A DNA stretch of 64,000 nt, from assembly GCA_951406725.2 (NCBI GenBank), contig OX597834.1:27342001-27406000 (forward strand), given 5' to 3'. Below are positions 5,055 through 48,933 of this stretch, in pieces. This DNA comes from Octopus vulgaris. Lineage: Eukaryota. Both the position numbers and the translations under genes were made by a program. The notes under the pieces were generated by a model that saw only the letters and a program-made list of their open reading frames with translations, searched no databases and was not told the origin of the DNA. The number at the start of each line of letters is the position of its first letter. Position 1 is the first letter of the stretch.

Positions 5055-5550
5055 TCTTTATATATAAAAGTGAAGTTGTGTGTCTGTCTTCTACGATTTA
5101 GATTCCTAACTACTCCAACATTTTGCGGTGCAGTTTAACCAAAACCGAGTATCTTATAGTCGTGATTCATATCGAGCCCTTCTGGGTATTAGCGCGCGTC
5201 TACGATGAGTCTACGATTTTAAAAATAATTTACCATCATTTTTTCCATTTTAATGCATTTTTTCGCTATTATATAAGGGAAGTAACTCTCTAAAAATGTC
5301 TACGATGAGCCAACGATTTTTACAAAAATTTACCATCATTTTTTCCCATTTTAATGTATTTTTCGCTATTATATAAGGGAAGTAACTCTCTAAAAATGTC
5401 TACGATGAGTCAACAATTTAAAAAAAATTTACCATCATTTTGTTTCCATTTTTGATGCATTTTTTTGCTATTTTTTGGCTATAACTCTCTAAAAATGCTT
5501 ATAAAGTTATTTCCCTTACAAACCCGAGCAACGCCGGGGGATACTGCTAG
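5055..5550 (+). mobile_element. Non-autonomous Helitron, copy 1 (three ~100-bp internal repeats)
   Basis: 5' TC and 3' CTAG termini, inserted between A and T with no TSD; GC-rich hairpin CCCGAGCAACGCCGGG just before the 3' end. Confidence 0.88.
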
Positions 5551-7094: not shown

Positions 7095-7491
7095 TCTTTA
7101 TATATAAAAGCGAAGTTGTGTGTCTGTCTCCTACGATTTAGATTCCTAACTACTCCCACATTTTGCGGTGCAGTTTAACCAAAACCGGGTATCTTATAGT
7201 CGTGATTCATATCGAGCCCTTCTGGGTATTAGCGCGTGTCTACGATGAGTCTACGATTTAAAAAAAAATTACCATCATTTTTTCCATTTTAATGCATATT
7301 TTTCGCTATTATATAAGGGAAGTAACTCTCTAAAAATGTCTACGATGAGTCAACGATTATTAAAAAAAATTACCATCATTTTCTTTCCATTTTTAATGCA
7401 TTTTTTTGTTATTTTTTGGCTATAACTCTCTAAAAATGCTTATATAGTTATTTCCCTTACAAACCCGAGCAACGCCGGGCGATACTGCTAG
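7095..7491 (+). mobile_element. Non-autonomous Helitron, copy 2 (two internal repeats)
   Basis: Same termini (A|TC...CTAG|T) and hairpin as 5055-5550; 99 bp shorter. Confidence 0.88.
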
Positions 7492-39534: not shown

Positions 39535-39934
39535 GTTCTATCTACTCTAGGCGCAAGGTCTGAAATTTTGGGAGAGGGGTCAGTCGATTAGATCGACCCT
39601 AGTACGCAACTGGTACTTAAATTATCGACTCCGAATGGATGAAAGACAAATTCGACCTCAGCGGAATTTGAATTCGGAACGTAAAGGCAGACGAAATACT
39701 TATTTCTTTACTACCCTCAAGGGGCTAAACACAGAGGGGACAAACAAGGACAGACAAACGGATTAAGTCGATTATATCGACCCCAGTGCGTAAGTGGTAC
39801 TTATGTAATCGACCCCGAAAGGATGAAAGGCAAAGTCGACCTCGGCGGAATTTGAACTCAGAACGTAACGGCAGACGAAATACGGCCACACATTTCTTCC
39901 CGCCGTGCTAACGTTTCTGCCAGCTCAACGACTT
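39535..39934 (-). mobile_element. SINE family C heterodimer (standard body + C2-tail body)
   Basis: 13-bp TSD ACGGATTAAAGAT at 39522-39534 and 39935-39947. Confidence 0.9.
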
Positions 39935-43374: not shown

Positions 43375-43465
43375 CTTTTTTTTCTTTCTTAAACCTTCAA
43401 AAGAAAAGCTCTACCTTGTAATTTGTTCTATCTGTGTGCAGCCCTGTGTGGCTAATAAAGAAACA

Positions 43466-47782: not shown

Positions 47783-48933
47783 GGCGGCGACCTGGCAGAA
47801 ACGTTAGCACGCCGGGCGAAATGCGTAGCCGTATTTCGTCTGCCGCTACGTTCTGAGTTCAAATTCCGCCGAGGTCGACTTTGCCTTTCACCCTTTCGGG
47901 GTCGATTAAATAAGTACCAGTTACGCACTGGAGTCGGTATAATCGACTTAATACCTATGTCTGTCCTTGTTCATCCCCTCTGTGTTTAGCCCCTTGTGTT
48001 TAGTAAAGAAATAGGTATTTCGTCTGCCATTACGTTCTGAGTTCAAATTCCGCCGAGGTCGACTTTGCCTTTCATCCTTTCGGGGTCGATTAAATAAGTA
48101 CCACTTACGCACTGGGGTCGATATAATCGACTTAATAGCCATGTCTGTCCTTGTTCGTCCCCTCTGTGTTTACCCCCTTGTGGGTAGTAAAGAAATAGAT
48201 ATTTCGTCTGCCGCTACGTTCTGAGTTCAAATTCCGCCGAGGTCGACTTTGCCTTTCACCCTTTCGGGGTCGATTAAATAAGTACCAGTTACGCACTGGA
48301 GTCGGTATAATCGACTTAATACCTATGTCTGTCCTTGTTCATCCCCTCTGTGTTTAGCCCCTTGTGTTTAGTAAAGAAATAGGTATTTCGTCTGCCATTA
48401 CGTTCTGAGTTCAAATTCCGCCGAGGTCGACTTTGCCTTTCATCCTTTCGGGGTCGATTAAATAAGTACCACTTACGCACTGGGGTCGATATAATCGACT
48501 TAATAGCCATGTCTGTCCTTGTTCGTCCCCTCTGTGTTTACCCCCTTGTGGGTAGTAAAGAAATAGATATTTCGTCTGCCGCTACGTTCTGAGTTCAAAT
48601 TCCGCCGAGGTCGACTTTGCCTTTCATCCTTTCGGGCTCGATAAATTAAGTACCAGTTACGCACTGGGGTCGATATAATCGACTTAATACCTATGTCTGT
48701 CCTTGTTCGCCCCCTCTGTGTTTAGCCCCTTGTGGGTAGTAAAGAAATAGATATTTCGTCTGCCATTACGTTTTGAGTTCAAATTCCGCCGAGGTCGACT
48801 TTGCATTTCATCCTTTCGGGGTCGATTAAATAAGTACCAGTTACGCACTGGAGTCGATATAATCGACTTAATACCTATGTCTGTCCTTGTTCGTCCCTCT
48901 GTGTTTAGTCCCTTGTGGGTAGTAAAAAAATAG
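47783..48933 (+). mobile_element. SINE family C hexamer: one head + six 184-bp bodies
   Basis: Units start at 47831, 48015, 48199, 48383, 48567 and 48751; units 1-2 are repeated as 3-4 (identical 64-aa ORFs 368 bp apart in the track). Confidence 0.95.

Follow-up and report, generated by a model that had tools for sequence, protein, structure and literature searches.

Single-headed tandem SINE arrays in Octopus vulgaris and their probable growth by insertion of new copies into older ones

Architectures similar to the one reported here have already been published for a clam and for reptiles. In the blood clam Scapharca broughtonii, tandem SINE multimers of the form TSD1-(SINE)n-TSD1 reach 4–15 units and account for ~3% of copies (PMC11481361). 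Their first unit has a full tRNA head, the later units share the same head truncation, a single pair of target-site duplications (TSDs) frames the array, and the first and inner tails are truncated. The SINE-derived satellites of squamates (sSats), which have been ascribed to DNA duplication, repeat a segment of a SINE in tandem, one of the terminal units being longer, and form up to hundreds of homogeneous units with a subtelomeric leaning; the same paper cites full-length Dip/B1 multimers of a jerboa, which retain their heads (PMC10702118). Tx1 families target microsatellites or other transposons, and Tx1-Mar mobilises the crocodilian SINEU, a SINE with a target-preferring L1-group LINE that makes sequential tandem insertions (PMC4494074). 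In the autonomous elements R1, R2, and SART1, which are aimed at rDNA or telomeres, RNA letters that match the target aid priming: the RNA of SART1 and R1Bm pairs with the cut target (PMC7265360), upstream homology gives R1 precise 5′ joints (PMC2718515), and R1 arrays arise from repeated insertion. Non-LTR retrozymes are also short tandem non-coding units in animals; they carry a hammerhead, are likely copied by a rolling circle, and are linked to Penelope-like elements (bioRxiv 10.64898/2026.07.22.740005). Finally, MetaSINEs (PMC4824008) and the octopus SINEs OK, OR1, and OR2 are tRNA-type cephalopod SINEs, to which we liken the present family by description.

We analyzed a stretch of 64,000 nucleotides from Octopus vulgaris (assembly GCA_951406725.2, contig OX597834.1, positions 27,342,001–27,406,000; hereafter, the window), in which positions 47783–48932 of the plus strand hold a SINE array. 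Alignment to the consensus resolved a single 47-bp head (consensus 1–47; 47783–47829) and six bodies (consensus 48–231) starting at 47830, 48014, 48198, 48382, 48566, and 48750. The initial annotation had described one head followed by six 184-bp bodies, and this description holds, except that the last body is 183 bp. Body unit 1 (47830–48013) comprises the target motif, a shared central region, and the tail of the family called A below; unit 2 (48014–48197) and unit 5 (48566–48749) are both 184 bp, units 3–4 (48198–48565) are identical to units 1–2 as assembled, and unit 6 (48750–48932) contains the sole T4 run of the array, at 48771. Unit 1 is thus identical to unit 3 and unit 2 to unit 4, and the remaining pairs differ at 10–14 alignment columns. 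The head contains a motif (47793–47805) that we take to be A-box-like, and body unit 1 one that we take to be B-box-like (47855–47867), both named by motif. A hairpin in which consensus positions 33–43 are predicted to pair with 48–58, with the pairing kept among copies, spans 47815–47840, and the part of the tail that resembles the 3′ terminus of an L1-group LINE (47970–48011) is repeated alike in every unit. The junction had been given as GAAATA-GG-TATTTC. GG is indeed found at junctions 1 and 3, and GA at junctions 2, 4, and 5; GAAATA ends every unit except unit 6, which ends in AAAATA; and the true restart is consensus position 48, two bases before the TATTTC previously taken as the body start. 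No clear TSD frames the array: the best match covered 12 of 16 columns and began ~25 nt downstream.

The array belongs to a 231-bp family that we label A in this analysis; two older families, labeled B and C, have positions 1–166 in common with A and different tails. In the whole 2.80-Gb genome, an exact tail 22-mer had 67,054 matches, of which 35,944 (53.6%) continued with GGTAT and 18,847 (28.1%) with GGTATTTCGTC. The proposal of a multimer-generating system is therefore borne out genome-wide, since 18,847 of the 67,054 exact tails lead straight into a body start. An exact junction 26-mer had 16,562 matches and a head-to-body 28-mer had 22,691, and reversed control k-mers had none across the genome. 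For counts independent of any search pattern, we used 664 kb, made up of the window, the adjacent 200 kb, and 40 stretches from other contigs. This sample contained 55 headed A elements: 32 monomers, 16 dimers, 5 trimers, 1 tetramer, and the hexamer described above, i.e., 23 of the 55 were multimers. The 40 distant stretches alone held 16 monomers, 9 dimers, 2 trimers, and 1 tetramer. A larger set comprised 434 non-redundant elements in 1.54 Mb, much of it picked via junction patterns, a selection that biases motif and tail counts. In this set, 220 of the 240 restarts after an A tail fell at positions 48–51 and 11 at positions 15–21; in the stretches not chosen by pattern, 31 of 40 fell at 48–51. 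Variable junctions had been expected to speak against such a system, and the junction proved to be fixed. The number of bodies ranges from 1 to 7 and is mostly 2–3 in arrays, with a mean within-array distance of 0.068, and inner units end at 229–231, i.e., their tails are whole. On contig G000:C1 (4676264–4677965), ten exact junctions ~185 bp apart mark an array of at least 11 units.

Family A has the features of a SINE: it is short, interspersed, and present in at least 100 copies; TSDs frame 34/76 monomers, 17/54 arrays, and 0/300 controls; and its 3′ end is 77–84% similar to that of a LINE over 42–43 nt. Its putative likeness to tRNA was judged from the A- and B-box-like motifs; ARAGORN and Rfam gave no match, and the ARAGORN result led us to reject identity with a tRNA gene. 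The central region may resemble the Meta domain. The octopus SINEs OK, OR1, and OR2 were reportedly described by Ohshima and Okada in 1994.

The window also contains monomers and dimers, in agreement with the earlier statement that arrays of one, two, and six bodies all occur in it. On the plus strand, one 16–18 bp TSD surrounds a dimer of the same family at 37328–37745, and the two units of a second dimer (15421–15834) have 5 rare variants in common. On the minus strand, a head, an A body, and a family-B body whose B tail runs on form a chimera (39582–39926) framed as a whole by a 13-bp TSD; a head with two A bodies restarts at position 15 into a family-B copy (23092–23661); and a monomer with an 11-bp TSD, preceded by an extra GG, lies within an older copy of opposite orientation (57012–57242). 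In the region 22075–23661, short (ATT)n spacers separate about eight older B/C copies that follow one another head to tail, and an A dimer caps the cluster. Further short tandem repeats, with 100-bp and 155-bp units, lie at 5198–5497, 7237–7438, and 25553–26080. Elsewhere, the last 50 bp of the tail are present three extra times between two whole copies (L089:6318–6957), and rare alternative restarts (185 to 21 and 170 to 20) occur at L165:1389–1904 and L195:4607–5315, the latter two likely representing local duplications.

Like the clam multimers, the octopus arrays have one head, head-truncated later units, and one pair of TSDs; unlike in the clam, the inner tails are whole, multimers make up 23/55 of headed copies rather than a few percent, the units are often unrelated, and nested intermediates exist. 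Similarly, they share with sSats the tandem units and one longer terminal unit, but they are short, dispersed, and mixed, not long and homogeneous. They do not form a fixed dimeric SINE family, given that n ranges from 1 to 7 and last units come from A, B, or C. In SINEU, the target is another transposon and the TSD is kept between tandem copies, whereas in the octopus it is the element's own head, and the head is probably merged. The same self-targeting distinguishes it from R1, R2, and SART1. In contrast to the retrozymes, no hammerhead was seen in the octopus unit and its tail is LINE-like; a single circular template, which might apply to a minority of arrays, does not describe the rest.

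The first component of the explanation that we favor is an insertion preference for GGTAT-like targets. In 36 cases at non-SINE sites, the TSD begins directly after the tail, and the upstream TSD copy, which represents pre-existing DNA, starts with GGT in 13 of them and with TATAT, TGTAT, or AGAA in others. Position 48 of family A itself reads GGTATTTCGTC and is one such site. The number of GGTATTT sites at SINE position 48 (51/178) was discarded as proof, because it contains the junctions themselves. The second component is that whole younger copies sit at the position-48 site of older copies with the target duplicated. Such unmerged forms were collected with the pattern "position 49–59, short gap, new head", which had 137 matches against 19 for a control at positions 90–100, 9 of these 19 lying in two tandem clusters. 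The enrichment is only ~7-fold, and unmerged forms make up <1% of junctions, so we infer the link between them and the merged majority. In the 30 loci inspected, the upstream part was an old head in 16, an A tail in 13, and neither in 1. After the removal of nine loci (2 duplicates and 7 without a measurable host), the insert was younger than its host in 15 of 21 (0.037 vs. 0.065, p = 0.004). At the cleanest locus, L148 (1295–1625), a whole A copy lies between two copies of an 18-bp target that includes a deletion belonging to the old C element itself. Two further loci, L204 and L207, resemble it, and at L207 the downstream target copy is nearer the A body start than the upstream copy. The TSD lengths at nested loci (8–17 nt) are partly imposed by the search pattern, and only L148 is independent of it. 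A separate region (G000:C10:17996024–17996502) consists of eight tandem 64-bp repeats of head plus target, and we take it from this that unmerged joints are unstable as DNA. When the empty site was sought in contigs of related organisms, these covered the flanks, the head, or the host tail, with the break inside the repeat, and none bridged it.

The relatedness and age of the units within arrays bear on this direction of insertion. The earlier suggestion of rolling-circle copying fails for most arrays, which contain unrelated copies, and nested intermediates exist; one template may nevertheless hold for the hexamer, the units of which have rare alleles in common. Of 34 dimers, 22 have no rare variant in common and only 1 has two or more, and at 10 polymorphic sites dimer units differ by 3.18 mismatches, compared with 4.10 for random pairs (p = 0.001) and ~0.9 expected from one template; most seeds are thus different copies that were joined, and a minority are related. 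In contrast, two or more rare variants are common to the units at 13 of 19 internal junctions of longer arrays, so DNA duplication is what enlarges long arrays internally. Near-homogeneous arrays (5 of 55) and the closeness of dimer units relative to random pairs count against the self-insertion reading. The tail of the last unit in 121 arrays belongs to A in 62, B in 32, and C in 8 and is unclear in 19, i.e., B or C is last in 40. In 35 measurable chimeras, compared at 95 common sites, divergence is higher in the last unit than in the adjoining A unit (0.071 vs. 0.040; 27 vs. 5; p = 5e-5), and a TSD of at least 10 nt frames the whole chimera in 10 of 31 (control, 14/500). The mean pairwise distance is 0.149 among the last B/C units and 0.092 among their A neighbors, and only 5 genomic matches represent a restart after a B tail, although at least 9,854 such tails exist. 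Last units alone carry an older A haplotype (0/185 vs. 15/62 in the pattern-biased set; 0/30 vs. 2/15 in the unbiased one). Arrays made up entirely of A units show no clear age gradient, with divergences of 0.044 in the last and 0.040 in the first unit (p = 0.25), which counts against the self-insertion reading.

The heads tell a different story from the last bodies. In arrays ending in B or C, they are no older than monomer heads (divergence, 0.058 vs. 0.059) and track neither the first nor the last body in age, so the old head is mostly not retained. The sole head feature that points to the host is T19 (15/38 vs. 22/133, p = 0.006), the head type shows no linkage to body alleles, and at L180 (4983–5328) an old head clearly precedes a pristine body. 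In most cases, the resident head has likely given way to the incoming one, or multimer RNAs contribute.

The repeats that match the last 42–43 nt of the SINE tail at 77–84% are 5′-truncated ends of a LINE, one of which lies in a (CTAT)n tract of the window (43376–43463, plus strand); the GAAA at the SINE tail end derives from the LINE end. A full-length L1-group LINE at L242:2557–8657, also within a (CTAT)n tract, has two open frames of 728 aa and 1,152 aa. The longer frame (L242:4773–8228) contains endonuclease (EN), RT, and zf-RVT domains, with human L1 ORF2p as its best solved relative, and the best named relative of the LINE is from Argonauta hians. In 29 of 30 copies, the LINE is followed by CWTATCTA, a (CTAT)n target, so both its domains and its target are those of an L1-group LINE aimed at a repeat. 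Judging from the similar 3′ end, such a LINE is the likely helper of the SINE, and the candidate probably fits the Tx1 clade, a label given from its features. Because the SINE is older than the fetched LINE copies (97–98% like the query), its actual helper may belong to a sister LINE family.

We consider it fairly probable that new SINE copies insert at position 48 of older copies, likely through pairing of read-through RNA, that the cDNA then likely fuses with the head already present, so that the product has a single head and one more body, and that DNA duplication likely lengthens some arrays. Following the two observed components, Pol III reading through the tail would produce array transcripts with GGUAUUUCGUC after the tail, and GGUAUUUCGUC would pair with the nicked target and prime reverse transcription by the L1-group LINE protein. 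The head end of the cDNA would anneal to the resident head, which would explain why no second head or new TSD is seen and why the TSD of the host frames the array. Slippage or unequal exchange would then copy units, as seen among internal units, and every new array may in turn supply further self-aiming RNA, which would amount to positive feedback. In the hexamer, local duplication or multimer RNA would account for most units.

Read-through is expected from the consensus unit, which contains no T4 run; a T4 run is the terminator of Pol III, so the polymerase would run through the tail. RNA carrying tail-to-body junctions, as proposed earlier, is likely: among 15 cases with extra letters between tail and TSD, 6 carry letters of the body start or of position 15 (G, GG, GGTA, GGTAC, 26 nt of the body start, or AGAAAC). 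The address also differs between subfamilies. Tails with GGGCAATA are followed by AGAA in 6,773 matches and by GGTA in 1,140, whereas behind tails with GGGTAGTA the next letters are GGTAT in 54%, and AGAA was seen there in 3 of the 208 cases sampled. Restarts at position 15 stand mostly behind GGGCAATA tails, i.e., the older subfamily prefers another address, AGAA at position 15. This difference points to guidance by read-through RNA, but the two addresses could also stem from different helpers or from one helper having replaced another over time. A broader proposal, toward which we are somewhat more doubtful than confident, is that the SINE is self-homing: the read-through letters after the tail would serve as the guide, each subfamily would have its own inherited head address (GGTATTTC at 48, AGAAACG at 15), and each hit would turn old or dead SINEs into new sources of guide RNA, so that tens of thousands of loci would have been rebuilt.

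The alternative that survives best is that a few early dimers or chimeras acted as masters, were read through by Pol III, and were retroposed whole, with priming at any tail yielding one, two, three, or more bodies. The lack of T4 in the consensus, the single TSD around 17/54 arrays, the young heads, the partial restarts ahead of TSDs, and the rare alleles common to the hexamer units all agree with such masters, and they likely act as a second route alongside self-insertion. As the main explanation they are unlikely, because the last units are so varied and older than their neighbors that very many chimeric masters would be needed, and because unmerged nested copies exist.

Joining at the RNA level is quite unlikely. 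It would require the RNA to be cut in the head loop between positions 47 and 48 and then either circularised and copied repeatedly or used by an RT that, on reaching the cut end, switches to another RNA at its 3′ end. Template jumping has a precedent in R2 (PMC2718515), jumps between RNAs would yield young heads and mixed units, and the near-homogeneous arrays (5/55) would fit a circle. The restart does lie at a structural edge: TATTTC is the 3′ arm of the head hairpin, the insertion site 47^48 is at the 3′ edge of its 4-nt loop, and 278 of 313 heads maintain pair 43:48, as U-G, G-C, or U-A. With the nick site at this position, a structure-guided cut of either DNA or RNA would be conceivable. 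Pairing of the body ends, which had been put forward as possibly promoting repeated template jumps or a circular RNA, received mixed results in the predicted folds. For the full-length RNA, TATTTC is predicted to pair with the head (P = 0.997), and its pairing probability with the tail is about 0; the tail becomes its predicted partner only in headless or dimer RNA, where the ends of a headless linear body pair and the junction hairpin reaches P about 0.65 in the dimer, and the isolated junction hairpin has only −1.4 kcal/mol. End pairing is thus disfavored as the main cause. A circular RNA copied by the rolling-circle mode fares no better as the main cause: it predicts matching units, whereas dimer units are unrelated (3.18 mismatches instead of ~0.9) and 40/121 arrays end in B or C, and the predicted circular fold (−33.3 kcal/mol) is not better than that of shuffles (−36.9 ± 3.8 kcal/mol), which led us to reject the reading as a stable circle. 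A ribozyme or known RNA family was also rejected; in line with the initial annotation, the hammerhead core CTGANGA was absent from the 6 units and the circularised consensus on both strands, and an Rfam search returned nothing at E ≤ 10. Moreover, RNA-level joining predicts neither the GGTAT preference elsewhere nor nested copies with duplicated targets, and it leaves the older last B/C unit unexplained.

Unequal crossing-over or slippage in DNA alone, between a short match at position 48 and a TSD starting with GGTAT, as recombination was suggested for the clam (PMC11481361) and reptile (PMC10702118) arrays, is very improbable as the origin: it would fit the identity of units 3–4 and 1–2, the related internal units (13/19 junctions), the tandem amplification of the head-plus-target 64-mers, and the frequency of GGTAT at TSD starts, but it can neither join unrelated units nor place an older family last, it does not explain why 28% of tails are at one exact junction and B tails hardly ever restart, and as the seed of dimers with unrelated units it is refuted. 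DNA-level exchange clearly acts secondarily.

Alleles common to all units of the hexamer count against the self-insertion reading. C190 is present in all six units and has a frequency of 1.8% elsewhere, and only 4 of 384 other units carry the same five-site haplotype. The four distinct units are 5–6.6% apart and differ at the family-wide alleles 64, 125/128, and 150. The units therefore likely descend from one source, through early local duplication or a multimer RNA, with exchange afterwards; a single-template origin may thus apply to this locus although it fails for the family. The final step was likely the exact doubling of units 1–2: the identical 368-bp repeat makes units 3–4, as assembled, a likely recent DNA-level copy, as the initial annotation had recognized. 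At 47950–47958, and at the same place in each unit, positions 168–176 are the exact reverse complement of the tail–body junction. In the hexamer subfamily these positions are predicted to pair with the junction, and in the commonest haplotype they are not. This post hoc observation suggests that the source copy of the subfamily may already have held a tail–body junction.

The literature consulted, which lies outside most subscription journals, Repbase, and Dfam, contained neither a description of the octopus arrays nor a SINE that targets its own head; the self-insertion mechanism, unlike the architecture, was not encountered there. A total of 893 unclassified SINE families have been listed among recent O. 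vulgaris insertions (PMC13282606, Table 1), and we speculate that composite SINEs could inflate this number. For annotation, about four in ten headed copies are composite, which would split consensus building and blur age estimates. The octopus family provides a concrete path by which a dispersed SINE can become tandem arrays, its intermediates surviving in the genome, where the clam and reptile papers invoke recombination. If the self-insertion reading is true, a non-coding retroposon makes its own safe target, and young bodies and tails put into old copies amount to a direct swap of SINE modules between families. If the SINE is also self-homing, its target would be set by the passenger RNA and inherited through flanking DNA, and not by the helper endonuclease alone.
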